Positions 10,645 to 31,974 of a stretch of 32,000 bases of DNA are shown here, piece after piece (the stretch's first letter is position 1; the number at the start of each line of letters is the position of its first letter). This DNA comes from Acaryochloris marina MBIC11017. Its GTDB lineage: Bacteria; Cyanobacteriota; Cyanobacteriia; Thermosynechococcales; Thermosynechococcaceae. Position numbers and translations under genes: made by a program. The stretch is from positions 3,030,001 through 3,062,000 of the forward strand of contig NC_009925.1 in assembly GCF_000018105.1 (NCBI RefSeq). The letters are read 5' to 3'. The notes below the pieces were generated by a model. The model saw only the letters and a list, made by a program, of their open reading frames with translations. It did no database searches and was not told where the DNA came from.

Positions 10645-10696
10645 ACCTGATCAAGATGTTATAGGCTGGTCAGGTTTAAAACTCATATTATAAAAT

Positions 10697-10711
10697 GATA
10701 ATCATTATCAC
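10697..10711. promoter_or_regulatory. Zur/Fur-type operator (perfect 7-1-7 palindrome)
   Basis: TGATAATCATTATCA is embedded in an AT-rich 96-bp divergent intergenic region. It lies 53 nt from the start of 9754..10644 and 30 nt from the start of 10741..11967. Confidence 0.75.
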
Positions 10712-14751: not shown

Positions 14752-14808
14752 GATGATATCCTCATACTTTAGGTAAAAAGAACTCGAAATCGACAAAAAG
14801 CAAGTGAC

Positions 14809-15441: not shown

Positions 15442-15450
15442 ATTCGTAGC

Positions 15451-15493: not shown

Positions 15494-15533
15494 ATTTGTC
15501 AATCGAGTTTGTACTTCGTTGTAGTTAACGTTT

Positions 15534-16121: not shown

Positions 16122-16230
16122 AGATGATTTAAATTGAACGGACAGAGATCCCTCAATTGATCTTCGATATCTCAGCAAGCCAAGCGAATGAAATCCTGAA
16201 AGCATAGATACACCGCCTATATGACGGCAA

Positions 16231-16848
16231 TTAGACTTGTTGCATCTGTCGCCAAGATTGCGACAACACTTTTGCTGCAGACTGGGTAAAAACGACTGTT
16301 AGCAGCAACCCCACCGCTAAATCCGGCAGGATAGACTGAGTCAGGGAGACCAATCCTGCTGCCGCTAACACAGAGGTATTGGCGATAATGTCGTTGCGAG
16401 AACATAACCACACTGAAGACATATTCAGGTTATCTTGCCGATGTCGGGTGAGGAGTTGGAGACAGAACAAATTTGCAAGCAAAGCGATAATGCCCACTAG
16501 GCCCATGGTTGAAGCTTCTGGACTCGCACCGGTAAACAGTTGATAGCTGGCTCTAGCAAAAACACCAATCGCCAACAAGAACATAATCAAACCCTTAAGA
16601 AAAGCGGCTCCTGCTTGGGCTTTAACGCTCTTATTGAGGACATACAAACTGCTGGCATAGACCAAGGCATCCCCCAGCATATCCAACGAATCCCCAGTGA
16701 GGGAGAGAGATTCTGCCCGAATCCCTGCCCCAAATTCAACGAAAAACATTAGAAGGTTGATCAGCAGAACGGCCCAAAGCACTTTTGCCTGCTGCTTTCT
16801 CAGCTTTGACAATTCCTTGGCTTTGGCTTGGCAGCAATGATCACCCAT
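16231..16848 (-). CDS. cation diffusion facilitator (CDF) family divalent-metal exporter, short form
   Basis: Six-TM pattern with SLSLTGDSLDMLGDAL (the TM2 D/H metal-site region) and a CC pair at the N-terminus (MGDHCCQ). I prefer the ATG at 16848 because GGAG lies 7 nt upstream. No long cytoplasmic C-terminal domain is present. Confidence 0.75.
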   Translation of the reverse strand: MGDHCCQAKAKELSKLRKQQAKVLWAVLLINLLMFFVEFGAGIRAESLSLTGDSLDMLGDALVYASSLYVLNKSVKAQAGAAFLKGLIMFLLAIGVFARASYQLFTGASPEASTMGLVGIIALLANLFCLQLLTRHRQDNLNMSSVWLCSRNDIIANTSVLAAAGLVSLTQSILPDLAVGLLLTVVFTQSAAKVLSQSWRQMQQV

Positions 16849-16933
16849 AGTGGCTCTCCACATTCAAACATTCAAAGCAGTATTAGAACGTTACCGCACC
16901 CAATTCAAACATTCAAGCCAACATTAGAATGAC

Positions 16934-17299
16934 TTATTCAACCAGTTGGTTCAGTGTATGGTGGAGAATCTCAGCGACGCGCTGATCCTTGAGAGAGTAG
17001 TACGCTAATTTGCCATCATTGCGATACTTCAGAATTTGGAGATCCCGTAGCTTTCGTAAGTGGTGGGATGCCGTTGCGATCTTCATCCCCAGCAAAGACG
17101 CAACATCACAAACACAGAGTTCAGTTCCTTCACTCAGGGCATACAAAATCTTTAATCGGGACCGATCCGCTAACGCACTGAACAGCACTTGAGCCTCCAC
17201 CAGCAGATCTTCTCCCGGCAGTGCTTCATTCGCTTGGGTGACCAAGTCTTGGTTAAAACAACGGACTTGGCAAATATCTGTGGGCTTAGTCTGGGTCAC
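16934..17299 (-). CDS. ArsR/SmtB family metal-sensing repressor
   Basis: ELCVCDVASLLGMKIATASHHLRKLRDLQILKYRNDGKLAYYSL is the classical ArsR wHTH with the CVC (alpha3) motif. N-terminal cysteines occur in DICQVRC. GTG start. Confidence 0.88.
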   Translation of the reverse strand: MTQTKPTDICQVRCFNQDLVTQANEALPGEDLLVEAQVLFSALADRSRLKILYALSEGTELCVCDVASLLGMKIATASHHLRKLRDLQILKYRNDGKLAYYSLKDQRVAEILHHTLNQLVE

Positions 17300-18060: not shown

Positions 18061-18124
18061 CAACTGCATTCTATAGTCTCGTCAGTTAACGTTCAGGAAA
18101 CGCTGCATCTGTCATCTAACGGAT

Positions 18125-19607
18125 CAATGGCACTGACTTAAGAAGTCAGGAAAAGGCTACAAGTCTTGATAGATATAGGATCAAGACTTGCACGCCATAA
18201 ACTTCTGCCTTTCACTATGTCTGAGTCAGCCGAAATTCTCAAGCAGCAATTTTCCCAAAGCCTGGGTTTACCGTGGACAGATATCCTTCTAGCCTCAAGG
18301 TTAGAGGAACTCCTGAAAGAAGAAGCATTCTCCTATCGCAACCGGATATATAGCCCCATCGTTACGCTGTGGGCCATGCTTTACCAAGTGCTATCAGCCG
18401 ATAAAAGCCTTCGTAACACAGTCAAATGCATCACGACTTGGCTCACAGCGGCTGGCATCCAACCGCCCTCATCTGATACCGGAGCCTACAGCAAAGCCAG
18501 AAGTCGCTTTCCAGAGTCACTGTTGCAACGTTTAATTCCCGAAAGCGCTGAGTGCTTAGCGCAACCCCTCTCCCCAGAGCACCTCTGGTGTGGTCGGCCC
18601 GTCAAGGTCTACGACGGAACCACCGTGTTGATGGCTGATAGTGCGGCCAACCAAGCATCATATCCACAACATGGCAATCAAACAGCAGGCTGTGGTTTTC
18701 CCATCGCTCGCTTGGTAGTGTTCTTCTGCTTGGTTACCGGTGCAGTGGCGTCAGCTTGTATTGCCTCCTGGGACACCAGTGAAATTGTCATGAGTCGTTT
18801 GCTCTATCAAGACCTTGAGGTCGGTGATGTGGTCATGGCGGACCAAGCTTATGGCAGCTATGTTGATCTAGCCATCATTCAACAACACAGGGCTGATGGA
18901 GTGTTGCGTAAACATCATGCTCGCAAGACTGATTTCCGCAAAGGCAACAAGCATGGCATTGGTGATCATCAGGTGACATGGCATAAGCCAGCCCAACGGC
19001 CTGAGCACATGAGTGAGCAAGATTTTGCCCTGATTCCTCAAACATTGGTCGTTAGAGAGGTGTGTTTGCGCTTATCCCTTAAGGGCTTTCGCGACCAGCA
19101 CATTATTGTGGTGACGACGCTGCTGGATGCTCAACGCTACAGCGCTGGGCAACTGACTCGCTTGTATGGCTGGCGTTGGCCAATGGCGGAAGTCAATCTG
19201 CGCCATCTCAAAACCACCTTAAAAATGGAGATGCTCAGTGCCAAAACTCCGGATATGGTGCGCAAGGACATTTGGGTACATTTGTTGGGCTATAACCTAC
19301 TCAGAAGTCTCATGGAACTTGCGGCACCGCTAGCAGATAATGCTAGAACTCAACTGTCTGTGCAAGGAGCACGACAACACTTCAATCAGATGCTTGCTTT
19401 GTTGGCGACAGCCAACCGTGCGACCAGAAAGCGGTTGTTTACTCATCTACTTGAGACCATGGCAGCCGATCTATTACCCTCTCGACCGAATCGGCACGAA
19501 CCGAGAGTCGTCAAACGCAGACCCAAATCTTTCCCGCGAATGCGACAACCTCGCTCTGCTCTCAAAGCTAAGCTAGCTGTTTGATTGAGCTTAAGTCAGT
19601 GCCATTG
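18125..19607 (+). mobile_element. IS4-family insertion sequence (1483 bp), apparently intact
   Basis: Perfect 18-nt terminal inverted repeats: CAATGGCACTGACTTAAG at 18125-18142 and its reverse complement at 19590-19607. The element is flanked by the identical direct repeat ATCTAACGGAT at 18114-18124 and 19608-19618. Confidence 0.85.
18217..19584 (+). CDS. IS4-family DDE transposase
   Basis: Candidate DDE blocks are VYDGTTVLMADS, VVMADQAYGSY and YGWRWPMAEVNLRHLKTTLKM (Y-R-E-K region). The ATG at 18217 is the first ATG inside the track ORF, which starts at 18166. Confidence 0.88.
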   Translation: MSESAEILKQQFSQSLGLPWTDILLASRLEELLKEEAFSYRNRIYSPIVTLWAMLYQVLSADKSLRNTVKCITTWLTAAGIQPPSSDTGAYSKARSRFPESLLQRLIPESAECLAQPLSPEHLWCGRPVKVYDGTTVLMADSAANQASYPQHGNQTAGCGFPIARLVVFFCLVTGAVASACIASWDTSEIVMSRLLYQDLEVGDVVMADQAYGSYVDLAIIQQHRADGVLRKHHARKTDFRKGNKHGIGDHQVTWHKPAQRPEHMSEQDFALIPQTLVVREVCLRLSLKGFRDQHIIVVTTLLDAQRYSAGQLTRLYGWRWPMAEVNLRHLKTTLKMEMLSAKTPDMVRKDIWVHLLGYNLLRSLMELAAPLADNARTQLSVQGARQHFNQMLALLATANRATRKRLFTHLLETMAADLLPSRPNRHEPRVVKRRPKSFPRMRQPRSALKAKLAV

Positions 19608-19758
19608 ATCTAACGGATAGGTCTCAGGGGTGCGAGAATTATTTCAAAGCATTGGCAAATAGCTTGTGCCGAGCGTCCCTTGCAGACCCTTGTCATACCA
19701 ATTCCATATATGTGTGACTTGTATTATGGGAGTAGCGCGTTGCTGATACTTATCCCTC

Positions 19759-20238
19759 ATGCCCAGACCCTTACGAATTGATATCTGTGAAAGTGAAGAC
19801 ACACTCAAACGTTTATTACGTCAACAATCCTCCGGTCGTCGCAAAGAACGCTTGCAAGCCCTCTACTGGCTCAAAAGTGGTCAAGTCACCACTCGCATGG
19901 AGTTGGCAACCCTGACCGGACGAGGGGAATCCACGGTGTATCGCTGGATCAAACTCTATAAATCAGGGGGATTACAGGCAATGCTGGAGATTCCTACCTC
20001 TCCTGGGAAGCCCCCCATGATTGGTGGAGAGGTCCTCGAAAAGCTGAAAGCTCGTCTAGCTGACCCCAGGGGCTTTGAGAGCTACGGGGCGATTCAACAA
20101 TGGCTTTTAGATGAGTGTGGATTAGACGTACCCTACAAAACGGTTCATCAAACCGTGCATTATCGGCTCAAAGCCAAGCTCAAAGTTCCTCGACCTCGCT
20201 CACGCAAGACAGAGGAAGCTCAACAACAAGCCTATTAA
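19759..20238 (+). CDS. IS630-family transposase, N-terminal HTH part (OrfA)
   Basis: Winged-helix/HTH region (RMELATLTGRGESTVYRWIKLYKSGGLQAM), typical of IS630/Tc1 transposase N-termini. Confidence 0.8.
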   Translation: MPRPLRIDICESEDTLKRLLRQQSSGRRKERLQALYWLKSGQVTTRMELATLTGRGESTVYRWIKLYKSGGLQAMLEIPTSPGKPPMIGGEVLEKLKARLADPRGFESYGAIQQWLLDECGLDVPYKTVHQTVHYRLKAKLKVPRPRSRKTEEAQQQAY

Positions 20239-20251
20239 AAAACTTCCTCGT

Positions 20252-20818
20252 GTGATTGAGGTAATGACCCGCTATTTTGCCCAAGGACACCCAGTGCGCT
20301 ACTGGTGCATGGATGAAAGCCGCTGGGGACTCAAGACACTCACGGGTCGGGTTCTAACGTTGCGGGGTGTCAAACCTGTGGTGACGGTACAGTGGCCCCG
20401 AGAGGCTTTCTGGCTCTATGGCGCTGTCGAACCTCTCACAGGAGACAGTTTCTTCTATCGGTTTTCTCATCTCGATAGTGTTTGTTTTGAGCGCTTCCTG
20501 GAGCAATTCAGCTTGGCGTTTCCCCAGAGTCTCAATCTGATGCAAATAGATCAAGCCGCAGCCCATATGGCGACTTGGGTTCGATGGCCTGAGAATGTGT
20601 TGCCGATTGTACAGCCGTCTCATAGTCCAGAACTCAATCCGGCAGAGCGATTATGGCAGGACCTAAGAAAGCCTTTCAAAGGCAAAAACTTTGATTCTAT
20701 TGGGGCACTGGAGACCGCTTTATTTGAGCATATCAATACCCTCTCCCAGAAGGTGGTGGCTTCTCTAACGGGATATTCTTATATCTTGGATGCTTTGACT
20801 ATAAAGGTCACTCAATAA
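20252..20818 (+). CDS. IS630-family transposase, DDE catalytic part (OrfB)
   Basis: YWCMDESRWGL, LMQIDQAAAHM and PSHSPELNPAERLWQDLR are the DDE blocks of IS630/Tc1-mariner-type transposases. This ORF is in the +1 frame relative to OrfA. Confidence 0.8.
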   Translation: MIEVMTRYFAQGHPVRYWCMDESRWGLKTLTGRVLTLRGVKPVVTVQWPREAFWLYGAVEPLTGDSFFYRFSHLDSVCFERFLEQFSLAFPQSLNLMQIDQAAAHMATWVRWPENVLPIVQPSHSPELNPAERLWQDLRKPFKGKNFDSIGALETALFEHINTLSQKVVASLTGYSYILDALTIKVTQ

Positions 20819-20829
20819 GTGAATTGGTA

Positions 20830-21279
20830 TCAGGTTACAACACGACACACAATCTGTGGCTTTGTGGTTGAAATAACATCAACGCAATGATTTAGGCAAC
20901 AAAAACCATAGTGGCTGAATGGACCTGGGTAGTCAGAAGTGGCGAACGTGCTAACCTCCATAAACTCTAGATAAGCCGAACTTTTGTAAAGACGAGCTAA
21001 CTTGCCGACGTAGTTGTCTTGAGGTGCATTATCGGCATAAGACTCGTTCGCGACGTTGTAACAAATGTACTCAGCAAAAAATATTTCATAAATAGCACAG
21101 CCTTCGGTAGTTTCAATGTTACGCAGCCCAGATATTGTTGTACCAGCTATTTCCATGTCATGCTCTGGGCCATTCGCTGTAGCTTCGGCTAAGACTAGAC
21201 GTAGAGTATTATCTTCTGGTTCGGTAATTGATTCGAGGTACAGATACTTACTTCTGTTGATTTGATCGAAAGCTTCCAT
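20830..21279 (-). CDS. hypothetical acidic Cys-containing protein, compositionally atypical
   Basis: 149-aa ORF starting 6 nt after the DUF2063 gene stop. It looks lower in GC than its neighbours and has no HIP1 site. There is no TM segment and no recognised family. Its stop codon coincides with the IS630 terminus. Confidence 0.5.
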   Translation of the reverse strand: MEAFDQINRSKYLYLESITEPEDNTLRLVLAEATANGPEHDMEIAGTTISGLRNIETTEGCAIYEIFFAEYICYNVANESYADNAPQDNYVGKLARLYKSSAYLEFMEVSTFATSDYPGPFSHYGFCCLNHCVDVISTTKPQIVCRVVT

Positions 21280-21285
21280 GAGAGC

Positions 21286-22095
21286 CTAACTATTCTCATC
21301 TAAGCCAAGCATAAATCCGGATATCCATCCTCGCTGAACCCAGATTGGAAGCAAGGCTGCCACGTCAATCTCATCGTTGTGCTCAAACTGGGCGCAAATC
21401 TCTCCAAACGGAGCACCGGAAGCAAACGCCTGTAGGAGCTGCCACTCAGCAACATTGGGCAAGTCAATGCGGGTTTCATACTGGTCTCGCCAGAGAAACA
21501 GATTCACGTCGCCTTCATTTAGATCGATGGTCTCGGTACTGGCGGCATTGGCCTGATTCACTTGCCAAATTCGGTGAACCGGATAGGGGGAGGTCATTAA
21601 GACACTATGGTCGGGGAGTTGGAGCACCAGTTCGGGCCAACGGTCAGGCGGCACTTGACCCAAGGCCGCCAAATCTAAACCCGGTTGGTCTGAACTGTTA
21701 AAGATGCAGTGCCAATGCCACTCTAAGCGGGCTACATCCGGCAGATAGGGTAACGAAGCCGCTGGTTCAAACGCTGCGATAAATGCCGGGAGCTGTTCCC
21801 CATAATCTCCGAGATCGTGGGATTGAGAGGGATTGCGGCGGATATATTGCCGAGCCATGGCGGTAAAAAACTGGACCCCCACCAACCGACAACAGACGGG
21901 ATAAATATCTTCGAGGGCACGGCTCAATTTACCGACGACGCTGCCTTGGTAAGCCGATAAACCTCGTTCGAAGGAGAGGTGTTCAGTGCTGCGCATTTGA
22001 GGTTGGAGCTGCTGGATGCTGTCGGCATCTTTGGTTGAGATCGCACCATAAAACAACCGCTGTAACTCTCTTAATTCTGGGGGCGGTGTTGACAT
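21286..22095 (-). CDS. DUF2063-family partner protein of the MNIO enzyme (BufC-like)
   Basis: 269 aa. It overlaps the upstream DUF692 gene by 25 nt. The N-terminus (LQRLFYGAI...) and its position directly after DUF692 match the conserved DUF692-DUF2063 pair. Confidence 0.75.
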   Translation of the reverse strand: MSTPPPELRELQRLFYGAISTKDADSIQQLQPQMRSTEHLSFERGLSAYQGSVVGKLSRALEDIYPVCCRLVGVQFFTAMARQYIRRNPSQSHDLGDYGEQLPAFIAAFEPAASLPYLPDVARLEWHWHCIFNSSDQPGLDLAALGQVPPDRWPELVLQLPDHSVLMTSPYPVHRIWQVNQANAASTETIDLNEGDVNLFLWRDQYETRIDLPNVAEWQLLQAFASGAPFGEICAQFEHNDEIDVAALLPIWVQRGWISGFMLGLDENS

Positions 22096-22901
22096 AGATA
22101 GGTGTCGGCCTGCTGGGCTTCGGCCATCAAAACATCAAAGCTGGGAATATCCGTATCCCATTCAATCAACGTCGGCACCGGACCAAACCGCTGGAGCGCT
22201 TGCTGATAGAGCGTCCAGACTCCAGGCTGGACTGGATAGCCGTGGGTATCAAATAAAAAGTGGTCCTGCTCTTCATAACCCGCTAGATGGATCTCTTTAA
22301 TCCGATCGACGGGCAACGCATCCAGATAATCCAAGGGGTCAAAGCCATGATTGGTGGCATTGACATAGACATTGTTAATATCCAAAAGCAGATGACAATC
22401 GGCCTCAACTAAAAGGGCGGCTAAGAACTGCCATTCGGTCAGGCTGTTGTGGCGAAACTGAAGATAGGGCGATAGGTTCTCAATCAAAATCCGGCGACCG
22501 AGAAATTCCTGTACCTGCGAAATCCGATCGGCAACGTAATGGAGCACTGATTCCGTATAGGGCAGCGGTGCTAAGTCATTGAAGTAATGGCCGTTGACGG
22601 ACACCCAGGCCAGATGATCAGAGACATGAACCGGTTCGATCCGATCCGCCAGTTGCTTGAGCTGAGTTAGGTAGTCCATATTCAGCGGATCTGCTGACCC
22701 CAGGGACAGACTAACGCCATGGAGGGTGATCGGATACTGGGCTCGAATTTGTTCTAGGTGATACAGGGGCAATCCACCCCCCAAATAATTGTCGGAGAGG
22801 GCTTCTAGCCAGGGTATGGCTGGTTGATGGGTGAGGATATGGGCGTAATGTTGCGATCGCAACCCAATCCCAGCACCCTGAATTGCAGTCATGGCAACCA
22901 T
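22071..22901 (-). CDS. DUF692/UPF0276 multinuclear non-heme iron oxidase (MNIO; BufB/MbnB-like)
   Basis: GAGIGLRSQHY, LEALSDNY, HGVSLSLGS, SDHLAW, LIENLS, LLLDINNVYVN, IHLAGY and LIEWD follow the TIM-barrel DUF692 block order. I prefer the ATG at 22901 because GGAG lies 6 nt upstream. The longer track ORF (to 22946) would read through a strong hairpin. Confidence 0.85.
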   Translation of the reverse strand: MVAMTAIQGAGIGLRSQHYAHILTHQPAIPWLEALSDNYLGGGLPLYHLEQIRAQYPITLHGVSLSLGSADPLNMDYLTQLKQLADRIEPVHVSDHLAWVSVNGHYFNDLAPLPYTESVLHYVADRISQVQEFLGRRILIENLSPYLQFRHNSLTEWQFLAALLVEADCHLLLDINNVYVNATNHGFDPLDYLDALPVDRIKEIHLAGYEEQDHFLFDTHGYPVQPGVWTLYQQALQRFGPVPTLIEWDTDIPSFDVLMAEAQQADTYLCQHRPQN

Positions 22902-22921
22902 AAAATACTCCAAAACGTAAG

Positions 22922-22946
22922 GTGCCTGCTTTTCACAAGCAGGCAC
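22922..22946 (-). terminator. hairpin between the precursor and enzyme genes (possible partial terminator or attenuator)
   Basis: On the minus strand: GTGCCTGCTT-gtgaa-AAGCAGGCAC, a perfect 10-bp stem, then CTTACGTTTTGG. It lies 25 nt after the precursor stop and 20 nt before the MNIO start. Confidence 0.5.
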
Positions 22947-22971
22947 TCAAACTTTGCATGATTGAAACGAC

Positions 22972-23286
22972 CTAACCTTCTTTCTTGCCTTCTTCAACCG
23001 CTTCAGCAGGGGGGGCAGCTTCTTTCAAGGTAGATCCAACAATCTTTTCACAGGTGCCAGCAGGCACATAAATCCACTCTTCTGGATCATTATCAACGGT
23101 GGCTTTACCAGAGCAGTCATGCTTGCTAGTACCACAGTCATTGAGACCAGCCTTGACGATACCGGCGCACTTTTCATAACCGGGCTTACCAGCAACCGCA
23201 TCATCCGATTGAGTTGCCACTAGGCCGAGAGCCAGCACACCGGATAAAGCAGTGGTAACAGCAACGGCTTTAGTCGTCGTTTTCAT
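22972..23286 (-). CDS. DUF2282-family RiPP precursor with a Sec signal peptide (bufferin BufA1-like)
   Basis: Signal peptide [24 protein letters not shown], then [47 protein letters not shown]. This shows the four conserved Cys and the EWIYVP.GTCEKI block of DUF2282. The tail is acidic and Ala/Pro-rich. Confidence 0.85.
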
Positions 23287-23710
23287 AATGGAGAATTCCT
23301 TTTAGGATTGTGCATTCTTTGAGCAGCGTAAGCCGACGCTTGGCTGTTGCTCACATATAGAATACGAGCAACTCCTCCCTTTGGATGTAGATTGTTCGAG
23401 TTTATCGGCGTTTGCACCCAGATTCGTTGCCTAAAGAGCGCTTGGAGCATGGCGATGGTCTCTGACTGGCCTGCCTCCAGAGAAGGAGCTAAGTCCTGCG
23501 AACGCCCAAAGGTACGCTAACGGCCATCACAAACCCACTGCCAAAAACAACAGTAGTTTTGAGAATATCACTGTGCTTTCCTCTCGATTGCACCATGGAT
23601 CAAATATAAAATTCTCCTTAAATCTTATAAAATTGGGATCGTTCATATCCTTATAGCCTGGCTGAAAAATCAGCACAGGCTTAAGTTTTTTTATTTATTT
23701 GGAGATAAAA

Positions 23711-24223
23711 GTGAAGAAACAAGCATTAACTCTTGCTTTAGCGAGTATCCTCATCCCTGCAAGCGCTTACGCTTCCGATATCACCACTGAAGAAGTCGAA
23801 GCAGCACAAGCCGCGTGGGGTAATGGCATTGTAGAAATCGGTAAAGCTGAAGACCCTAAACAAGCCGCTATCGCCCATATTGATAAGTTCTATGGGTTTG
23901 ATATGGGTTCCGTTTTGTTCAAGCCCACCTTAGCGTCTGAGGATCAATTCCGAGGGACTAAGCAAGAAGCTTTGTCTTATTTCATCGGTCAAGATTTGAA
24001 GGAAGACAAGGGGTTTGCCCTTGCACCTTACACTAAAGTTCGCTGGGAAAACGAAGGCATCATCGTTGACGATGACTCAGCTGTAGCAATGGGAAATTAC
24101 TTCTTCACCAAAACCGATGGTGAAGAAGTCAAAGTGGAGTTTACCCTTGGTTACGTTAAAGATGAAAATGGCAACTTAAAGATTAATCTGCATCATTCAT
24201 CCCTACCCTATAGCGCCAACTAA
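23711..24223 (+). CDS. secreted NTF2-like (COG4337/SgcJ-EcaC-like) protein; candidate iota-class carbonic anhydrase
   Basis: GTG at 23711 with GGAG 6 nt upstream. Signal peptide KKQALTLALASILIPASAYA. The AAQAAWGNGIV start is typical of NTF2-like folds. The C-terminal INLHHSSLPY matches the HHSS motif reported for iota-CAs. I am confident it is a CDS; the functional call is tentative. Confidence 0.5.
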   Translation: MKKQALTLALASILIPASAYASDITTEEVEAAQAAWGNGIVEIGKAEDPKQAAIAHIDKFYGFDMGSVLFKPTLASEDQFRGTKQEALSYFIGQDLKEDKGFALAPYTKVRWENEGIIVDDDSAVAMGNYFFTKTDGEEVKVEFTLGYVKDENGNLKINLHHSSLPYSAN

Positions 24224-24245
24224 TACAGCTCAGCCTTCATGAAGC

Positions 24246-24280
24246 ATAACGCCCCGCTGGCTCAGGTCACGGGGCGTTAT
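24246..24280. terminator. hairpin between convergent genes (possible bidirectional terminator)
   Basis: Perfect 11-bp stem ATAACGCCCCG (24246-24256) / CGGGGCGTTAT (24270-24280) with a 13-nt loop. There is no clear U-tract. Confidence 0.45.
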
Positions 24281-24310
24281 ATCACTGAACAAAAGAACAC
24301 TCACCAGACC

Positions 24311-24571
24311 TTAACCCAAAGATTTACAGAGAGCATCAACATCTGGCTTAGCAATCTCATGAACGGCCTGATGGAGCTTATATTGCTGAGGGGGCTGGGT
24401 CATGATCGCAATCACCGTTTCTATCGGTGGGCAACCCGGCTCATGACAGGCCAACTGACTAATGGATACCGGGATATCCGCAGGAATGGCGAAGGCTTCA
24501 TACACCCAGGCTTTCAGCCGTGCAATCTGTTCTGGATCCGCTTTAGGCGTGGATGCTTTAAACAAATCCAT
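24311..24571 (-). CDS. small conserved hypothetical protein with a CHEPGCPP motif
   Basis: The ATG at 24571 gives 86 aa (MDLFKASTPKADPEQIARLKAWV...). It begins 24 nt after the WD40 gene stop. The longer track ORF (to 24688) would overlap the WD40 gene. Confidence 0.5.
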   Translation of the reverse strand: MDLFKASTPKADPEQIARLKAWVYEAFAIPADIPVSISQLACHEPGCPPIETVIAIMTQPPQQYKLHQAVHEIAKPDVDALCKSLG

Positions 24572-24594
24572 TAGAACTACTCCCCATTCAACAA

Positions 24595-25644
24595 CTAGAA
24601 AAATCCTTGACCTCGTGCACTTTGGGTCCAAAGCTGCCATTCTCCTTGCTGGCCCCCTAAAGCTAGGGTCTGACCATCTGGACTCCAAGCCAGGGCTGAA
24701 CCACTGATACTTTTTTGCGCTTGGACTAGCTTACCCCCACCTTGCCACAGACAGAGAAAGTCATCCGCTGCAGCAGATACTAAAAGAGTGGTATTAGGCT
24801 GAAAGGCAATGGCATTGACTGCTTGCGTGTGCTCTTCTAACAGCTCTGCTTCCCAGCCACTGCCTAGGCGGTGCCAAGTCGTAATGCAGTTACCACTGGC
24901 TGCGGACAGCAGGGGGTCAGCATCAACGGATTCAGCATCCGCTGACCAGGCTATTTGCCGAACTTTGCCAGGGAAACCCGTCATCCGCCAGGGTACGTCT
25001 TCTTCTGAAGGCCACACCACCATAGTGCGATCTAAATTTCCTGACGCTAAATATTGCCCGTCCGGCGACCAAGAGACACAGATACTCGATCCTGGAAGCT
25101 CTCGAATGGCGGGATCTTGATCCCAATCCTGCCAAATTTTGACCCCTTGATGGCCACCGACCGCCAGCCAATCCTGTTGCGGATGCCAGGCTAAATCTAA
25201 AACGGAAGAGTTTTCAAAGGCGAGAGTCGTCAGGACTTGCTGGGTCTCAACCTCCCAAACCTGGGCATAGCGCCCCAGGCTAAACACCAATTCTGGACGC
25301 CGAGGATGCCAGGCCAGTTGATCCACCCAGGTGCGAGGGTTCTCTAAACAGGTAAACAGCGTCGGTGCGTCGCCGCTCATCTCCCAAATCGAAACACGGC
25401 CATCTTGCCCTCCTGCTGCGAGAAAACGGCCATCAGCGGAGTAAGCCAATGCATCCACTGACTGTCCGGTGCCCGTTTGCAGACTATGGGTTTGTTGGGT
25501 GATTCGATTGAGACATTGAACATTACCCGCTCCATCGCAGGCGGCCACCTGCTGGCTATTGGGTGACCAGGCAATGGCCGTCACATAATCATCTAAACGC
25601 CCACGCCATTTGCGTCCAAGTCGTGGCTGAGTTACACGAGGCAA
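24595..25644 (-). CDS. WD40-repeat beta-propeller protein
   Basis: Repeated units such as AWSPNSQQVAACDGAGNV, AYSADGRFLAAGGQDGRVSIWE, SWSPDGQYLASGNLDRTMVVW and AWSPDGQTLALGGQQGEWQLW. The TTG start overlaps the COG0523 stop by 13 nt. Confidence 0.85.
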   Translation of the reverse strand: MPRVTQPRLGRKWRGRLDDYVTAIAWSPNSQQVAACDGAGNVQCLNRITQQTHSLQTGTGQSVDALAYSADGRFLAAGGQDGRVSIWEMSGDAPTLFTCLENPRTWVDQLAWHPRRPELVFSLGRYAQVWEVETQQVLTTLAFENSSVLDLAWHPQQDWLAVGGHQGVKIWQDWDQDPAIRELPGSSICVSWSPDGQYLASGNLDRTMVVWPSEEDVPWRMTGFPGKVRQIAWSADAESVDADPLLSAASGNCITTWHRLGSGWEAELLEEHTQAVNAIAFQPNTTLLVSAAADDFLCLWQGGGKLVQAQKSISGSALAWSPDGQTLALGGQQGEWQLWTQSARGQGFF

Positions 25645-26600
25645 GCTTGGAACCCCTTTCTTAACTGATCTTCATCTAAATTGCGGCCAATAAACACCAA
25701 CTCATTCTTGCGGGTTTCGCTAGCCTTCCAAGGGCGATCTGCACGGCCATCAAACAACATATGGACCCCCTGAAACACAAATCGCTGATCTTCTCCGGCA
25801 ATATTCAAAATTCCCTTCATCCGAAAGATATCAGGCCCCTTGGTTTGCAACAGATTGCCTAGCCAACCGTTGAGCCGTTCGCCATCAATCTCCCCCGATT
25901 CTGTTAAGGCCACCGACCCTACGGTTTCGTCATGCTCATGGGCATCTTCTCCCAAAAACTCAGGGTCGATCTCTAAAGCTCGGTCTAGATCAAAGGCACT
26001 CACACCTAAGATGGACTCCATCTCCACTGCCGCATCCTGAGTGCGATAAATTTTGGTCATGGCATTCATGGACCGGATTCGATTTTCCAGATCCGCCAAA
26101 TCCGCTTCGCTGACTAAATCGGTTTTATTGAGTAACACCACATCCGCAAAAGCGATTTGCTCCTGGGCTTCATCCGCATCCCAATGCTGGTGGATATGCT
26201 TGGCATCCACGACCGTCACTATCGCATCCAGATTGAGCTGGGTCTGCATATCTTCATCCACAAAGAAGGTCTGGATCACCGGAGCTGGATCCGCTAGCCC
26301 TGTGGTCTCAATCACCATATGGTCGAACTTATCTCGTCGTCGCATCAAGTTGCCAATAATCCGAATCAGATCGCCTCGCACGGTGCAACAGATGCAGCCA
26401 TTGTTCATTTCAAAGATTTCTTCATCGGCATCGATCACCAGCTGATTATCAATGCCCACCTCACCAAATTCATTGACAATCACGGCTACTTTTTTGCCAT
26501 GTTCGTGGGTGAGAATGCGGTTGAGTAAGGTTGTTTTTCCGGCTCCCAGATAGCCCGTTAGAACGGTGACAGGGACGGTATCTATTGCAGCGGTAACCAT
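25632..26600 (-). CDS. COG0523 (CobW/ZigA/Zng1-type) metallochaperone GTPase, no His-rich tract
   Basis: P-loop GYLGAGKTTLLN, CICCT and NKTDL, plus the C-terminal CobW_C-like block FRMKGILNIAGEDQRFVFQGVH. A Zur-like box lies upstream. Confidence 0.9.
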   Translation of the reverse strand: MVTAAIDTVPVTVLTGYLGAGKTTLLNRILTHEHGKKVAVIVNEFGEVGIDNQLVIDADEEIFEMNNGCICCTVRGDLIRIIGNLMRRRDKFDHMVIETTGLADPAPVIQTFFVDEDMQTQLNLDAIVTVVDAKHIHQHWDADEAQEQIAFADVVLLNKTDLVSEADLADLENRIRSMNAMTKIYRTQDAAVEMESILGVSAFDLDRALEIDPEFLGEDAHEHDETVGSVALTESGEIDGERLNGWLGNLLQTKGPDIFRMKGILNIAGEDQRFVFQGVHMLFDGRADRPWKASETRKNELVFIGRNLDEDQLRKGFQACLV

Positions 26601-26628
26601 GACGATGACCTCATCGGAGAATGGTTGA

Positions 26629-26643
26629 GATAACGATTATCAT
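26629..26643. promoter_or_regulatory. Zur/Fur-type operator upstream of the COG0523-WD40 operon
   Basis: The minus strand reads ATGATAATCGTTATC. The window offset by one base reads TGATAATCGTTATCT and matches TGATAATnATTATCA at all but two positions. It lies about 30 nt upstream of the start at 26600. Confidence 0.6.
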
Positions 26644-26714
26644 TCTACAAATATTTCGACGTCAGTTTGGCGACTTTACCTTAGCTTTAGCTTTTCAAGG
26701 CGATGGGATAGGTT

Positions 26715-26732
26715 CTGGATTTCTCACCAGCC
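26715..26732. repeat. 18-nt sequence whose exact reverse complement occurs at 30754-30771
   Basis: CTGGATTTCTCACCAGCC here and GGCTGGTGAGAAATCCAG at 30754-30771. Confidence 0.7.
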
Positions 26733-26777
26733 GATGCCAACAAACTGCATGAGTGAGTAACATCAGTTGATTTAATC

Positions 26778-27027
26778 GCAGATCAGTAGCCGTTTTTGAC
26801 TCACCCAGTCCATCTGTTCTGTGTTGATGATTCTCTACCTTGATTCAGTGAATGATCGCAATTGGGGTGGAAGTGAGGGTGTTATGCGACACAATATCGG
26901 AATAACCCTTTATTTTGGAGAATTCTCCAACATCTGGCCTATAATCCACTGAGAGAAGGTGTTATACGATAGGTGGTACCTAGCATTACTTATAGATGTG
27001 TTATGCGATAGCCTGACGTATCCATAG
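26778..27027 (+). repeat. direct repeat copy L (about 250 bp) upstream of the AbiH-like gene
   Basis: It aligns by eye with 28354-28551, for example GTAGCCGTTtTTGACTCACC, TGTGTTGATGAT.CTCTACCTTG.TTCAGTGA, CAATTGGGG, CTGGC.TATAATCC and ATAGAT.TGTTAT.CGA. L carries extra segments of about 40 and 13 nt. Confidence 0.7.
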
Positions 27028-27133
27028 TTATGTACAAGAACCTTCATCGAAAATGATTGAGAAAGATCATTGTGTAAACTCTTCGAGACCCTCAATTGCT
27101 CAGTCAATTGAACTACAGCATAGATAAAAATAT

Positions 27134-28114
27134 ATGAATGTTGTTTTTATTTTGGGAAATGGATTTGATCTTAACCTGGGATTAAACACCAGCTACTCCG
27201 ATTTTTACAACTACTATAAAAAACAAGTTTCATCAAACGAAGTAATCAAAGAGTTAAAGGAAAATATAGATTCAAATACAGAAAACTGGTCTGATCTAGA
27301 GCTTCAATTGGGGCGCTATACCTCAAGACTAAAAGATCAAAATGACTTCGATATTTTCTATTTCGATATAGTAGACAATCTAAGAGACTATCTTGATCTT
27401 GAAGAAGATAGTTTTGACTACTCTGCATTTGACAAGTCCGTATTGTTGAGAGATCTTGTTGAGCCTGAAAGAGTTTTATCTCAGAGAGAAAGAAATAAAC
27501 TAACAGATTGGTATCGAAAATTCGGAGGTAATATAAACACTAACATTTTGACATTTAATTATACTCAAACAATTGAAAAAATACTTGGCAAAAATGCCAC
27601 TAGTCAGCCGATTGGCACAAATAATAAAGGCGTACAAGTTTTACTAAATAGTATTGACCACATACATGGATATCTTGAAGATGGTCTCGTACTAGGAGTA
27701 AATGATGAGGAACAAATTGAAAATGAAAAATTACGTCTGTCTCAGGAGGTTGTCGAGGCCATTGTTAAGCCCATGCACAATCAAGAGTTAGGGCATACGA
27801 GAGATGATCGCTGCATGCAAGTTATATCTGCAGCGAACCTAATATTTGTGTTTGGCTGTTCGATTGGTAAATCTGATCAGATGTGGTGGGAAAAAGTTGG
27901 CAGCACACTAGGGGAATCTTGTCGGCTAGTTATATTTCATCGAGGTAGTAATGTGAATAGCCAGAATGATATCCTGTATGCTCGTGAGAATCGTAAGATA
28001 ATAAATCGATTTTTATCACTAACGAACTTGGATGAAGAAAAAAGGGACATTGCAAAGCAGTATATTACCGCTGCTGTGACTAAAGACCTGTTCAAGCTTG
28101 TCAAAAGTACATAA
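27134..28114 (+). CDS. AbiH-like abortive-infection (phage defence) protein
   Basis: The N-terminus MNVVFILGNGFDLNLGLNTSYSDFYNYY matches the hallmark GNGFDL..GL.TSY.DF start of the AbiH family. The 326-aa length fits. The gene is strongly AT-rich with no HIP1 sites, unlike the flanking DNA. Confidence 0.72.
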   Translation: MNVVFILGNGFDLNLGLNTSYSDFYNYYKKQVSSNEVIKELKENIDSNTENWSDLELQLGRYTSRLKDQNDFDIFYFDIVDNLRDYLDLEEDSFDYSAFDKSVLLRDLVEPERVLSQRERNKLTDWYRKFGGNINTNILTFNYTQTIEKILGKNATSQPIGTNNKGVQVLLNSIDHIHGYLEDGLVLGVNDEEQIENEKLRLSQEVVEAIVKPMHNQELGHTRDDRCMQVISAANLIFVFGCSIGKSDQMWWEKVGSTLGESCRLVIFHRGSNVNSQNDILYARENRKIINRFLSLTNLDEEKRDIAKQYITAAVTKDLFKLVKST

Positions 28115-28288
28115 TCTTGCCACGCAAGGGATACTCAAAATTCCCTTCAAGTTGTGTATTTTATAATTCTGCTCGTACCCCTGATGAATGACAGTTAAAT
28201 TTTAGTTCGTAAGAAATTTTGCCTTTCTTTGTGCTGAAGAATTGGGAAGCATGCTTGTGCTTGTTATCTTAAAAGTACAATTAAATGC

Positions 28289-28348
28289 GTGAAGATTGTC
28301 TCAGACACTAATATTTTCGTGGCCGTTGCGCGTGAAGAAGAAGGTTAA
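28289..28348 (+). pseudogene. possible remnant of a PIN-domain toxin N-terminus
   Basis: The GTG-initiated 19-codon ORF VKIVSDTNIFVAVAREEEG* resembles the (I/V)xDTN(V/I)(L/F)V N-terminal acidic motif of PIN toxins. It stops 5 nt before repeat copy R. Confidence 0.25.
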
Positions 28349-28353
28349 CTTAA

Positions 28354-28551
28354 GCGTAGATCGGTAGCCGTTGTTGACTCACCTACTCAATCTATTTTGT
28401 GTTGATGATCCTCTACCTTGCTTCAGTGAGTTGTCTCAATTGGGGCAGAAGTGAAGTTATTATCCGATACCTGGCATATAATCCGCTGAAATAGGGTTTT
28501 ATACGTAAATATTATTCATAGATATGTTATACGACTGATGTATACTCACAG
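28354..28551 (+). repeat. direct repeat copy R (about 200 bp) downstream of the AbiH-like gene
   Basis: See copy L. The orientation is the same. Confidence 0.7.
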
Positions 28552-28595
28552 TCCGGCTGCTACTGCTAATTGCTTGATAAAAGCTAAGCGAAAGG

Positions 28596-29321
28596 TTACA
28601 GGTGAGCGTTGGATTGAGGTTCTTCCTCACGCACACTACAAGTTTGTGTCGCAAAAAGTTGTGCAACCATTTTTGTCCGCGACGAAACTTTGAGCTTACG
28701 AAACATTCGCTTTAGAGCCTGTTTGACAGAATTTTCGGTGATCCAAAGTTCCTTGCCAATTTCTGCATTGGTTCGTCCTAAAGCAACTAAATTGGCGATC
28801 TCCAACTCACGCGGCGTTAACCGTTTGGTGCTCAACAATGGGTTCTGAGAGTTCATGGTGCTTTGTTGCGATCGCACTGTAGTCGTCCAGGTAGACAGGT
28901 GCAAACAAACCGCACTTAAATCAGCTAAATCCTGATGATCAAAGGCTGGCATCGATTTTTCGCGAGTACAACCCACTGCACCGACTAACTGACCGCAGTT
29001 AACGATCGGTCCTGCCATCACATGCCAATGATCCGGTCGAGGACAGATCAATGTCCAAGCTTTGGGTGTTGTCACTAATCCTTCATGGACAGGGGTATGG
29101 CATTCCGCAAGGTAGCGCGCCAGCGGATTGTGTTCCAGGGAGAGAACGATGTTTAGAATGCCCTGAAACTTAGGCTCCGAGAGAAGCTGGTCAAAGAAAA
29201 AGATCCCTGATCGCTTCGCTGTAAAGTACTCACCCACCTTCGGCGCTAGGTGCGATCGCAAGTCATCCTCATGCTTACACTGGTGAGTTTCTTCAAATAA
29301 AAGCTTCAAAGAAAGAGTCAT
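28596..29321 (-). CDS. LuxR-family transcriptional regulator with an N-terminal GAF-like sensor domain
   Basis: C-terminal LuxR HTH: LTPRELEIANLVALGRTNAEIGKELWITENSVKQALKRMFRKLKVSSR. The N-terminal ~160 aa is globular and GAF-like. Confidence 0.85.
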   Translation of the reverse strand: MTLSLKLLFEETHQCKHEDDLRSHLAPKVGEYFTAKRSGIFFFDQLLSEPKFQGILNIVLSLEHNPLARYLAECHTPVHEGLVTTPKAWTLICPRPDHWHVMAGPIVNCGQLVGAVGCTREKSMPAFDHQDLADLSAVCLHLSTWTTTVRSQQSTMNSQNPLLSTKRLTPRELEIANLVALGRTNAEIGKELWITENSVKQALKRMFRKLKVSSRTKMVAQLFATQTCSVREEEPQSNAHL

Positions 29322-29420
29322 GGTCGTGAAAAGAGTACCCGATCGAGGACTAGGCGCACTGGGCCGTTATTCATAGCATAGGGATAGATTCAACAACGAT
29401 CAAAATAAGGAAATTAATTC

Positions 29421-30098
29421 ATGCCTGCCCCACAAAAGCACGTCATTGGCTTGGTCTTTTATCCTGGCATGACCTCACTAGACATGGTGGGCCCCCATCA
29501 AGTTTTCGGTGCACTACCCGGTGTCGAACTGCATCGGATTTGGAAAACGCTAGCTCCAATTACCTGCGATGACGGCTTAGTGATCGTGCCAGATACCACA
29601 TTTTCAACTTGTCCACCTTTGGATGTTATTTGTGTCGGCGGCGGTTTAGAACAGCGGGCAGTCGTAGATGATCCAGAAGTGCTGGACTTTTTCCATAAAC
29701 AAGGCAAAACGGCGCGGTTTATTACCTCTGTCTGTAGTGGGGCAGAGTTTCTAGCAAAAGCAGGGTTGCTAGAGGGCTATCGAGCAGCGACCCATTGGGG
29801 CATGCGCGAACAACTAATGACAAATCAGGGCGTTGAGATTGTAAACGAGCGTGTTGTTGTCGATCGCAATCGCATCACAGGGGGAGGCGTGACGGCCGGG
29901 ATAGATTTTGGTCTAACGGTTGCAAGTATCCTGTGCGGCGAAGAAACCGCCAAGATGATTCAACTCTTACTGGAGTACGATCCTGCGCCTCCATTTGATG
30001 CAGGTTCACCTGAGAAAGCGGGGCCTGAGCTGGTCGAGAAAGCCATCGCACTGATGCAGCAGATGTCAAGCTTAGAATTTGCAAACCCCGTTCGCTGA
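29421..30098 (+). CDS. DJ-1/PfpI family protein (isocyanide-hydratase-like class)
   Basis: IGLVFYPGMTSLDMVGP, the nucleophile elbow ITSVCSGAEFLAKAGLL, and RITGGGVTAGIDFGL. Confidence 0.85.
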   Translation: MPAPQKHVIGLVFYPGMTSLDMVGPHQVFGALPGVELHRIWKTLAPITCDDGLVIVPDTTFSTCPPLDVICVGGGLEQRAVVDDPEVLDFFHKQGKTARFITSVCSGAEFLAKAGLLEGYRAATHWGMREQLMTNQGVEIVNERVVVDRNRITGGGVTAGIDFGLTVASILCGEETAKMIQLLLEYDPAPPFDAGSPEKAGPELVEKAIALMQQMSSLEFANPVR

Positions 30099-30144
30099 TC
30101 TGACGACAATCCCCTCTTCATCCACGTTATAGCTTCGTTAGTTT

Positions 30145-30555
30145 ATGAGCTTCTTTAAAGACTTAGTTCAGTTTTGGAACGCCATGGGTTCGCTGCCCTG
30201 GACAATCCGGGTATGGGCAATACTCTATCCACTGCCACAAGTGCTAGGTGGTCTGTATTTCATTGGCGAAACGCCAGGTTTGGTGATTTTGCTGGGTCGG
30301 GTGTTGTCCTTTGTGATTGGGAGTCAAGTTCATCGTCGCCGACCGTTCTCAAAACTCATCGGCCCCATCGGGCACGCCCATTGGCTGTTGATACTCCCTT
30401 ACCTACTGTATCTCCTGGCTACACAAACATTGGATGATGGCTTGTACTGGTTCATCGTGTATGTGTGTGTCATTGGTATGGTGAGTGCAGTCATCGATAT
30501 CCGCGATACTATTGGGTATTGTCAACGCGGCGAGTCGTTCTATAAACGAGACTAG
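30145..30555 (+). CDS. small integral membrane protein, unknown function
   Basis: 136 aa with about 4 hydrophobic segments. It follows the DJ-1 gene on the same strand. Confidence 0.5.
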   Translation: MSFFKDLVQFWNAMGSLPWTIRVWAILYPLPQVLGGLYFIGETPGLVILLGRVLSFVIGSQVHRRRPFSKLIGPIGHAHWLLILPYLLYLLATQTLDDGLYWFIVYVCVIGMVSAVIDIRDTIGYCQRGESFYKRD

Positions 30556-30753
30556 ACAATGGTTATCCCAGACTGCATCAAACAATTCTGTTGAAGCGGG
30601 TTATTGCCGGATGGCAATGCATACGAAGTCTACTGATAACCGCTCAACAGGAACGTTAGATTCCAAAGACACCGAAGCTCAACCAAAATACAGAGTGTGT
30701 TGTTTGCAAGATTCTCTGCAAACCTGCAGACGGCTATAGGCAAACTAATCTAG

Positions 30754-30771
30754 GGCTGGTGAGAAATCCAG
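30754..30771. repeat. inverted partner of the 18-mer at 26715-26732
   Basis: GGCTGGTGAGAAATCCAG is the exact reverse complement of 26715-26732. Confidence 0.7.
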
Positions 30772-30873
30772 GTGGTGGGTTACCTTGCTCTGGGGGCGTA
30801 GTCGCGATCGCCAACACTTTCCAATTAGAATCAGAGCATAGGCAACATTTGAGTCACACTGAGTAAGCTGTCT

Positions 30874-31895: not shown

Positions 31896-31959
31896 GCTCA
31901 ACTCCTTACTGCACCTGGAATGAGAACAGTTTTTTGGCAAATCACAAGATTATCAAACA

Positions 31960-31974
31960 TGATTATCATTCTCA
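31960..31974. promoter_or_regulatory. Zur/Fur-type box upstream of the Fur-family gene
   Basis: TGATTATCATTCTCA matches TGATAATnATTATCA at 12 of 14 specified positions. A second GATTATCA half-site lies at 31948-31955. Confidence 0.5.

Follow-up and report, generated by a model that had tools for sequence, protein, structure and literature searches.

Gene structure and encoded protein

A 32,000-nucleotide stretch of Acaryochloris marina MBIC11017 (contig NC_009925.1, positions 3,030,001 to 3,062,000 of the forward strand), referred to below as the window, contains a gene whose product is homologous to the iota-carbonic anhydrases (CAs) of the COG4337/MICAH type. The gene occupies 23711..24223 on the + strand, stop codon included, and encodes 170 amino acids from a GTG start. 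It lies between a divergently transcribed operon of the bufferin type and a convergent operon that includes a COG0523 GTPase. The analysis described below indicated that it very probably encodes an exported, single-domain iota-CA homologue with its own transcription unit, located within a zinc-homeostasis island.

In the mechanical list of open reading frames (ORFs), the frame began at a TTG at 23699 (+) and ran to 24223. The sequence indicates that the true start is the GTG at 23711, because a GGAG is found upstream of it at 23701..23704, the segment GGAGATAAAAGTGAAGAAACAAGC is identical in five related loci, and the homologues are called at 170 amino acids. The GGAG was recognized as a Shine-Dalgarno sequence on the + strand, 6 nt 5' of the GTG, from the sequence and from an alignment of the upstream regions of five cyanobacterial loci (the window, L003, L004, L002, and L005).

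The N-terminus of the protein reads MKKQALTLALASILIPASAYA followed by SD. It looks like a Sec signal peptide because, by inspection, a basic n-region with two lysines leads into a hydrophobic core, and an AxA cleavage site comes next. The predicted signal peptide comprises residues 1-21 (23711..23773, + strand), with the cut after AYA. In the AlphaFold model, confidence was low (predicted local distance difference test, pLDDT, <50) at residues 1-4 and 7-15, and the folded domain began at about residue 25. Signal peptides are present in most bacterial COG4337 proteins (PMC8132391), and the window protein has the same feature (MKK, a hydrophobic core, and AYA followed by S). The first-pass annotation, made from the sequence alone, had described a secreted protein of 170 amino acids, and the ORF at 23711-24223 and its predicted Sec-type signal agree with that description. 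It had also given the C-terminal end as INLHHSSLPY. The HHSS motif is indeed present, but three further residues, SAN, follow that end, so that the C-terminus reads ...KINLHHSSLPYSAN.

Family membership, fold, and catalytic residues

In a phmmer search against all PDB sequences, the strong matches were to two proteins only, All2909 of Anabaena and Bn86287 of Bigelowiella, both deposited as 'iota-carbonic anhydrase'. All2909 (7c5v/7c5w) matched with an E value of 3.1e-31 over residues 23-168, and Bn86287 (7c5x/7c5y) gave an E value of 2.1e-75 with an end-to-end alignment in each of its three domains. Homology to both proteins was therefore full-length.

The AlphaFold model of the protein had a pLDDT of 87.2 and a predicted template modelling (TM) score of 0.80. 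When it was compared with the PDB using Foldseek, the top match was 7c5v_A (E 1.9e-16, TM 0.81/0.84, root mean square deviation 1.7 A, 44% identity), followed by 7c5x and 7c5y. Overall the iota-CA matches had TM scores of 0.81-0.84, deviations of 1.7-2.1 A, and identities of 37-44%. The model superposed on the cone-shaped alpha+beta fold of 7c5v, which is NTF2-like, as the pattern noted in the first pass had implied. Generic NTF2-like folds (ketosteroid isomerases, SnoaL cyclases, and limonene epoxide hydrolases) were lower in the list, with TM scores of 0.4-0.57 and identities of 10-20%. The first-pass annotation had proposed comparing the protein with iota-CA sequences and with solved iota-CA structures, and both comparisons gave the strong matches just described.

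The residues known to be catalytic were also present. In All2909, Thr106, Tyr124, His197, and Ser199 are each essential, as shown by alanine substitution (PMC8132391; residue numbers in the PDB chain differ from these by 27). In the phmmer alignment to 7c5v these four residues aligned with T73, Y90, H161, and S163 of the window protein. On the + strand, the Thr73 codon (in VLFKPT) is at 23927..23929, the Tyr90 codon (in ALSYF) is at 23978..23980, and the HHSS motif (His161-His162-Ser163-Ser164), of which His161 and Ser163 correspond to His197 and Ser199 of All2909, is at 24191..24202. The four residues, together with W36 and F70-K71-P72, were invariant across 34 aligned sequences from Cyanobacteria, Gammaproteobacteria, Alphaproteobacteria, Planctomycetota, and Bacteroidota. 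The literature describes a (H)HHSS motif as the signature of iota-CAs (PMC8425729), and the first pass had correctly pointed to HHSS near the C-terminus as that signature. Its proposal of a COG4337-type, metal-free iota-CA homologue was borne out by the sequence, the fold, the four catalytic residues, the HHSS motif, and the export signal.

Family models placed the protein within this group, at some distance from All2909. The Pfam family PF27546 'MICAH' is carried by homologue P0001, 98% identical to the window protein, according to its precomputed annotation. A local Pfam scan of the window protein gave no match at E <= 0.01, PF27546 being newer than the copy of Pfam used. The only NCBIfam match was to NF047901 'metal-independent carbonic anhydrase' (131.1 bits, E 3.2e-38). 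Because this score is below the curated 350-bit cut-off of the model, the protein was assigned to the broad family and not to the NF047901 equivalog. By sequence it is a diverged member of the broad COG4337/MICAH family, outside the narrow All2909 equivalog. Pfam and NCBIfam models already exist for this family, so the protein is an ordinary member of a described family.

Membership in the other type of iota-CA, COG4875/PF08332 (CaMKII_AD), was not indicated. There was no PF08332 match, and the COG4875-type structure 3h51 was only marginally similar (phmmer E 0.0012, Foldseek TM 0.56). Some close homologues carry the database name 'phosphoribosyl-AMP cyclohydrolase' (PRA-CH). A PRA-CH identity was rejected, as there was no Pfam match and hence no PRA-CH domain, and the naming of these homologues is probably an annotation error.

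Comparison with the characterized enzymes showed both likenesses and differences. All2909 (Anabaena sp. PCC 7120) resembles the window protein in having a signal peptide ahead of one domain of about 150 residues, in the NTF2-like cone of that domain, and in its catalytic Thr/Tyr/His/Ser, its HHSS motif, and the Trp and Phe residues of its cavity. The two are only 44% identical, however, and the NF047901 equivalog, which is built around All2909, gives the window protein 131 rather than 350 bits. The mature window protein could be aligned along its full length with each of the three domains of Bn86287 (Bigelowiella natans, plastid), with domain E values of 1e-20 to 1e-25 and the same catalytic residues, but Bn86287 is eukaryotic, has its three domains in tandem, and carries a bipartite plastid-targeting signal. 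The COG4875/CaMKII-AD iota-CAs (LCIP63 of diatoms and BteCA-iota of Burkholderia territorii, for which Xanthomonas 3h51 served as proxy) share the NTF2-like fold and the C-terminal (H)HHSS; they differ in having been reported with Mn or Zn (PMC8425729), and their similarity to the window protein is marginal.

Upstream region and probable transcription unit

The spacer between the CA gene and bufA, the bufferin-type precursor gene, spans 23287-23710, a distance of 424 bp. In the five-locus alignment, the gene upstream of the CA gene was bufA in three loci (the window, L003, and L004) and a flavin monooxygenase in two (L002 and L005), and only the last ~115 bp before the CA gene were conserved in all five. 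This proximal block (23596..23710, + strand), conserved despite the differing upstream gene, consists of an AT-rich promoter-like segment, a leader, and the ribosome-binding site, and it also holds a TTCATA block. An exact 32-nt pattern from the block recurred only 5' of the homologues in L002 and L005, and the conserved upstream motif was not found elsewhere in the window. The first-pass annotation had proposed a control region of about 420 bp in common with the bufferin precursor. A divergent spacer of that size does exist, but it is probably not functionally shared, because only the proximal ~115 bp are kept when the upstream neighbour differs.

Within the block conserved across relatives are two copies of TATAAAATT on the + strand, at 23605-23613 and 23626-23634, which are 21 bp apart and account for the duplicated motifs that had been noted near 23605-23633. 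The second copy lies inside TTAAATCTTATAA, which has a TTA-N7-TAA arrangement. The pair may represent a -10-like element or the binding site of a regulator. Directly 5' of the Shine-Dalgarno sequence, a leader stem-loop (23650-23685) runs into a U-rich tract (23686-23699), both on the + strand (23650..23699), with an RNA fold of -23.2 kcal/mol and a z score of -3.6. L005 has an equivalent leader hairpin (z -2.2), and L002 a weak one. The stem-loop and U tract resemble an intrinsic terminator or attenuator placed just 5' of the start codon, and attenuation is possible. No Rfam family was detected in the bufA-CA spacer at the gathering threshold or at E <= 10.

At the other end of the gene, a GC-rich hairpin at 24246..24280 is located between the CA gene and the convergent gene for an 86-amino-acid protein (fold of 24221-24312, -28.1 kcal/mol, z -4.0), and likely acts as a transcription stop in both directions. 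Because of the conserved proximal block and the flanking hairpins, the CA gene looks like a self-contained monocistronic unit with its own upstream block.

Features were also observed on the minus strand of the spacer. The hairpin at 23346-23372 that had been reported in the first pass is present; as minus-strand RNA it forms an 11-pair stem, G-U pairs included (-13.2 kcal/mol, z -2.6). There is also a promoter-like hexamer pair at 23631-23603 and a terminator-like hairpin at 23556-23535, which could belong to a long structured bufA leader or to a small transcript.

Zur boxes in the window

Zur boxes were searched for with the 7-1-7 pattern TGATAATNATTATCA of the Anabaena Zur site, whose consensus was checked against the supplement of PMC10957091. 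The window contained eight matches with three or fewer mismatches, where 1.66 were expected, and none of 100 shuffled sequences reached eight. One was a perfect box, TGATAATCATTATCA, at 10696..10710, upstream of the monooxygenase-SufE-COG0523 operon and identical to the Anabaena alr3242 Zur site given in the same supplement. A second (AGATAACGATTATCA, 26628..26642, two mismatches) is 28 bp upstream of the start of the second COG0523 gene. A third (31960..31974, two mismatches; one mismatch in its L042 counterpart) precedes a Fur-family regulator gene, a candidate Zur, at 31500-31940 on the - strand. The first-pass annotation had placed the CA gene among zinc-sparing genes, and these two COG0523 genes, the Fur-family gene, and the three Zur-box matches fit that description.

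It had also reported no Zur box in the control region of the CA gene, and this was confirmed. The best match to TGATAATNATTATCA in 23287-23710 had six mismatches of 14, and none was found 5' of the CA homologue in the five related loci, where the best matches had five to seven mismatches of 14. Because no Zur box precedes the CA gene, direct control by Zur through a canonical site is not supported.

Conservation of the gene neighborhood

The proteins nearest to the CA homologue were from Acaryochloris metagenome-assembled genomes and were 98-99% identical to it. The divergent arrangement of the bufferin operon and the CA gene was found in the window, in L001/L003/L004, and in L042. The window was collinear with the compact contig L042 (94% protein identity), in which the order is a Zur box with the monooxygenase-SufE-COG0523 operon; the cation-diffusion-facilitator (CDF) and ArsR genes; the bufferin operon; the CA gene; the genes for the 86-amino-acid protein, WD40 protein, and COG0523 protein; and then a Fur operon. 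The window has three insertions relative to L042, at 13603-16224 (GNAT and TetR genes), 18124-20837 (two transposase units), and 26710-30825 (AbiH, LuxR, and DJ-1). L042 shows the ancestral compact island, and the CA gene is at the center of a zinc-homeostasis island of about 18 kb that has been stretched by insertions in the window. Given the three insertions, the island is also a rearrangement hot spot.

A perfect Zur box (15620-15634) heads the Fur operon of L042, in which the gene for a 177-amino-acid CaMKII_AD protein lies between those for a ThrRS paralogue and a HisI paralogue and the Fur gene comes last. This operon is divergent from FolE-COG0523. The CaMKII_AD/SnoaL-like protein of 177 amino acids (L042:13183-13716, - strand) ends in DHHSS, has a hydrophobic N-terminal leader, and matches 3h51 with an E value of 2.8e-33. 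Judged by these features it is a COG4875-type, iota-CA-like protein, and its gene would be a second iota-type gene of the island, inside a Zur-box operon. By synteny, its counterpart in A. marina MBIC11017 would be located just beyond the right end of the window (position 32000).

In the other relatives the zinc genes were arranged differently. Locus L002, with a homologue 89% identical, has an abhydrolase gene, a perfect Zur box, the monooxygenase gene, and the CA gene on the same strand, followed by zur, exbBD, and znuABC, with perfect or one-mismatch boxes before zur, znuA, and znuC. In L005, a Zur box, the monooxygenase gene, and the CA gene are on the same strand beside a Fur-family gene. 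In L043, a znuA with a perfect box is 3.2 kb from the CA gene, znuA and Zur boxes are found within 3.5 kb, and a transposase gene is directly upstream. In L006, from a Cellvibrionaceae bacterium (80% identical), the palindrome TTGATATGTTGTAACATATCAA heads the series COG0523-DUF1826-ZrgA-Fur-MerC-HisI paralogue, the CA gene is next on the same strand, and past the CA gene are another COG0523 gene, DUF3299, and an ABC transporter. The HisI paralogue of L006 (9124-9600), immediately upstream of the CA homologue, is a genuine PRA-CH. L023, from Alteromonas oceanisediminis, has a perfect box (TGTTATACTATAACA), then MerC, COG0523, and the CA gene. In every cyanobacterial relative found, and in these two gammaproteobacteria, the CA gene is thus in or next to Zur-box operons (COG0523, ZnuABC, zur), and chromosomal clustering with Zur-controlled zinc genes was seen in the window, L042, L002, L005, L043, L006, and L023.

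A Pfam census of 127 neighbors in 34 genome loci gave a heterogeneous picture with no universal partner, in which cobW occurred only twice. The 15 loci obtained from a scan of metagenomes included no cyanobacterial one, and all lacked zinc markers. The Vibrio homologues (L016, L019, L020, and L022) are preceded, at a distance of ~110-130 bp, by a conserved palindrome, AAACATTATCAGGGGTAATGTTT, followed by T's, which matches none of the Zur patterns tried.

Origin of the gene

The closest homologues outside the cyanobacteria were from marine Gammaproteobacteria and Planctomycetota and were 65-80% identical to the window protein, compared with 44% for All2909. In a neighbor-joining tree, which is only indicative because it was calculated without support values, the cyanobacterial genes were nested within the gammaproteobacterial radiation, with the Cellvibrionaceae gene of L006 as their sister. 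The GC content of the CA gene is 44.4%, that of the window 48.4%. These comparisons make horizontal acquisition of the gene likely. It is probably not a vertical orthologue of All2909, because it is part of a marine clade to which gammaproteobacterial homologues (70-80% identical) are the most closely related. An origin from an Acaryochloris plasmid was tested by megablast of 21000-27000 against the PLSDB plasmids, and no match was found.

Proposed role of the CA homologue

Among zinc enzymes carbonic anhydrase is the archetype, and over much of the ocean surface little zinc is available. From the homology, the fold, the catalytic residues, the gene boundaries, the absence of a Zur box, and the island context, we infer the activity, metal independence, location, and role of the window protein as follows. 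After removal of the signal peptide, an NTF2-like cone of ~149 residues would hydrate CO2 to bicarbonate without a metal, by analogy with the Anabaena and Bigelowiella enzymes. As in those enzymes, Trp36 and Phe70 would line a cavity in which water is activated by the hydroxyls of Thr73 and Tyr90, with support from Ser163 and His161, and Tyr90 would serve as the proton relay. The gene would be expressed as a monocistronic unit with its own AT-rich upstream block, a structured leader, a closing hairpin before the convergent gene, and no Zur box. Its role would most likely be zinc-independent CO2 hydration outside the cytoplasm, in the periplasm or possibly the thylakoid lumen, and would be most valuable when zinc is scarce. 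Any response to zinc would be indirect or would come through read-through from the neighboring Zur-controlled operons.

All2909 and Bn86287 hydrated CO2 after treatment with EDTA/urea or with pyridinedicarboxylic acid (PDA), and no metal was detected in them by inductively coupled plasma optical emission spectrometry (Hirakawa et al. 2021, PMC8132391). Iota-CA abundance in the diatom P. tricornutum is inverse to Zn, which the authors of that study read as zinc sparing (PMC9010474). The CA paralogues that reviews of bacterial zinc sparing list with Zur are of the beta and gamma classes only, among them a gamma-class CA of Pseudomonas (Haas et al. 2009, PMC2770081; Chem Rev 2024, PMC11672702), and these reviews call for work on CO2 hydration under zinc scarcity. 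Literature searches found no paper that ties COG4337, All2909, or iota-CA to Zur. The idea of a zinc-sparing iota-CA is plausible; it has a eukaryotic precedent in the diatom, and no bacterial description of it was found. Zur-regulated paralogues of zinc enzymes share the proposed logic, that of an alternative enzyme encoded beside COG0523 chaperones and Zur boxes, but the CAs listed with Zur are metal-promiscuous rather than metal-free, and the window CA gene has no Zur box before it.

Several results weigh against an exported iota-CA homologue serving in a zinc island. The protein is well below the NF047901 cut-off, and its identity to All2909 is modest. A simple sigma-70 consensus scan found no + strand promoter for the CA gene; its sole match was on the - strand, and the count was within chance expectation. 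The gene lacks a Zur box, which tells against a zinc-sparing function in particular. All2909 was detected in the Anabaena exoproteome, with a signal peptide scored by SignalP, and its level in the exoproteome of a zur mutant was not raised (log2 fold change -1.52, P 0.116, false discovery rate 0.36). The link to zinc is positional only, and ~45 of the ~52 homologous loci (from Vibrio, Pseudoalteromonas, Alphaproteobacteria, Planctomycetota, Bacteroidota, and metagenome contigs) had no zinc marker within 10 kb. The first-pass suggestion of a zinc-independent substitute for Zn-dependent CAs is better supported than before but still tentative: the island context recurs in several lineages, but the gene has its own block with no Zur box and All2909, the Anabaena member, showed no Zur dependence in the exoproteome, while the window gene is in a zinc island.

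The genomic setting suggests that the gene supplies CA activity under zinc scarcity, and its induction by zinc starvation, direct or indirect, is a doubtful but real prospect. A broader proposal, that iota-type CAs are the bacterial zinc-sparing answer for CO2 hydration and that the Acaryochloris-type island carries two of them, one COG4337 and exported and the other COG4875-type as judged from L042 synteny, is put forward only tentatively. Induction of both iota-type enzymes by zinc starvation would be the first case, in a bacterial Zur response, of the textbook zinc enzyme being replaced by one truly independent of metal, and would be the prokaryotic counterpart of the diatom iota-CA response. 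An exported metal-free CA in a Zur island, together with a second iota-type gene in the Zur-box operon of a relative, makes a concrete hypothesis in a cyanobacterial genus that can be cultivated. Without a link to zinc, the CA gene would simply add one more member to a structurally and biochemically described family.

Alternative explanations

The stronger form of the zinc connection would make the gene a true member of the Zur regulon, a replacement for Zn-dependent periplasmic CAs that is induced by zinc starvation through read-through, a non-canonical Zur site, or a secondary regulator. The location of all cyanobacterial relatives found (the window, L001/L003/L004, L042, L002, L005, and L043) in zinc islands speaks for it, as do the same zinc link in the gammaproteobacteria L006 and L023, the first of which is sister to the cyanobacterial clade by neighbor-joining, the COG4875-type iota-CA-like gene inside the ThrRS/HisI-paralogue/Fur operon of L042 with its perfect Zur box, and the fall of the P. 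tricornutum iota-CA as Zn rises (PMC9010474). We consider it somewhat unlikely all the same: in no cyanobacterial locus is there a Zur box 5' of the gene, which has its own conserved upstream block; the terminator-like hairpin and U tract just before the gene would oppose read-through; in the window, the CA gene is not 3' of any Zur-box operon on its own strand; All2909 was not derepressed in the zur mutant exoproteome; and most homologous loci are without nearby zinc genes.

Alternatively, the enzyme could serve carbon supply or pH homeostasis and be controlled by inorganic carbon status, for instance via a regulator of the LysR type. The gene would then be in the zinc island only because horizontal transfer had brought it into a plastic region. 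LysR was the commonest neighbor family in the census (6 of 127), and LysR genes are divergently adjacent to the CA gene in L025, L026, L027, L028, and L012. The TTA-N7-TAA (T-N11-A) of TTAAATCTTATAA in the conserved block is what we take to be the LysR-type arrangement of CmpR/CbbR sites, although AT-rich motifs of this kind easily arise by chance, and neither in the window nor in the cyanobacterial relatives does the CA gene have an adjacent LysR gene. The plasticity of the region is evident from the transposases and the three insertions relative to L042 and from the transposase directly upstream in L043, and transfer is consistent with the nesting of the cyanobacterial genes among gammaproteobacterial ones and with the lower GC content of the gene. 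However, the zinc islands occur in independent arrangements (L002/L005, L006, L023, and the Acaryochloris type), which are hard to put down to chance alone, and this explanation appears unlikely.

The protein is very unlikely to have a function other than CA, for instance the binding of small molecules or a different hydratase or isomerase reaction. The NTF2-like superfamily is functionally diverse, with ketosteroid isomerases, SnoaL cyclases, and limonene epoxide hydrolases among the lower Foldseek matches, some close homologues bear the cyclohydrolase name, and the score is below the NCBIfam equivalog cut-off. Against this, those other folds are far more distant in TM score and identity than the iota-CAs, the catalytic four and the cavity residues are invariant, and the protein has no PRA-CH domain.

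That the protein serves the bufferin (BufA/MNIO/DUF2063) metallophore system as an accessory, with a shared bidirectional control region, can hardly be credited: the divergent arrangement over 424 bp is kept in the window, L001/L003/L004, and L042, but it is found in one lineage only, no DUF2282, MNIO, or DUF2063 gene occurs within 10 kb in L002, L005, L043, or more than 45 other loci, and outside Acaryochloris the conservation of the spacer is limited to the part next to the CA gene. A bufferin partnership was accordingly rejected on synteny, since co-occurrence was confined to Acaryochloris-type loci and absent from all non-cyanobacterial loci, and the pairing is lineage-specific and probably incidental.

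Other features of the window

The bufferin-type operon occupies 20830-23286 on the - strand and is set in a zinc island rather than in a copper context. It is headed by the RiPP (ribosomally synthesized and post-translationally modified peptide) precursor gene (DUF2282/BufA1, E 1e-23) at 22972..23286. Family matches identified an MNIO gene (MbnB/TglH/ChrH) at 22071-22946 and a DUF2063 gene at 21286-22095, both also on the - strand. The operon further encodes a 149-amino-acid protein without a family match and lacks a DoxX gene. Between the precursor and MNIO genes is an attenuator-like hairpin with a run of T's (22946-22922), which would set the ratio of precursor to enzyme.

The convergent operon on the other side of the CA gene (24311..26600, - strand) encodes the second COG0523 GTPase (25632-26600), a WD40 protein (24595-25644), and the 86-amino-acid protein (24311-24571), in the same order as in L042. 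The 86-amino-acid protein, encoded last in this Zur-box operon, had no Pfam or NCBIfam match; it contains a CHEPGCPP motif and is conserved in L001, L003, L004, and L042.

Behind the perfect Zur box, the monooxygenase-SufE-COG0523 operon extends over 10741-13603. Its first gene encodes a flavin monooxygenase resembling Lys/Orn N-monooxygenases, and the monooxygenase gene and the box are also found directly 5' of the CA gene in L002 and L005. Genes for an ArsR/SmtB-family regulator and a cation-diffusion facilitator (16231-17299, - strand) are part of the same island. This pair, which is likely a zinc-excess or efflux module, is kept in L001, L003, and L042. The sole Rfam family in the window was a TPP riboswitch (RF00059, 64.5 bits) at 2594-2687 on the - strand, directly upstream of thiC (1210-2586).

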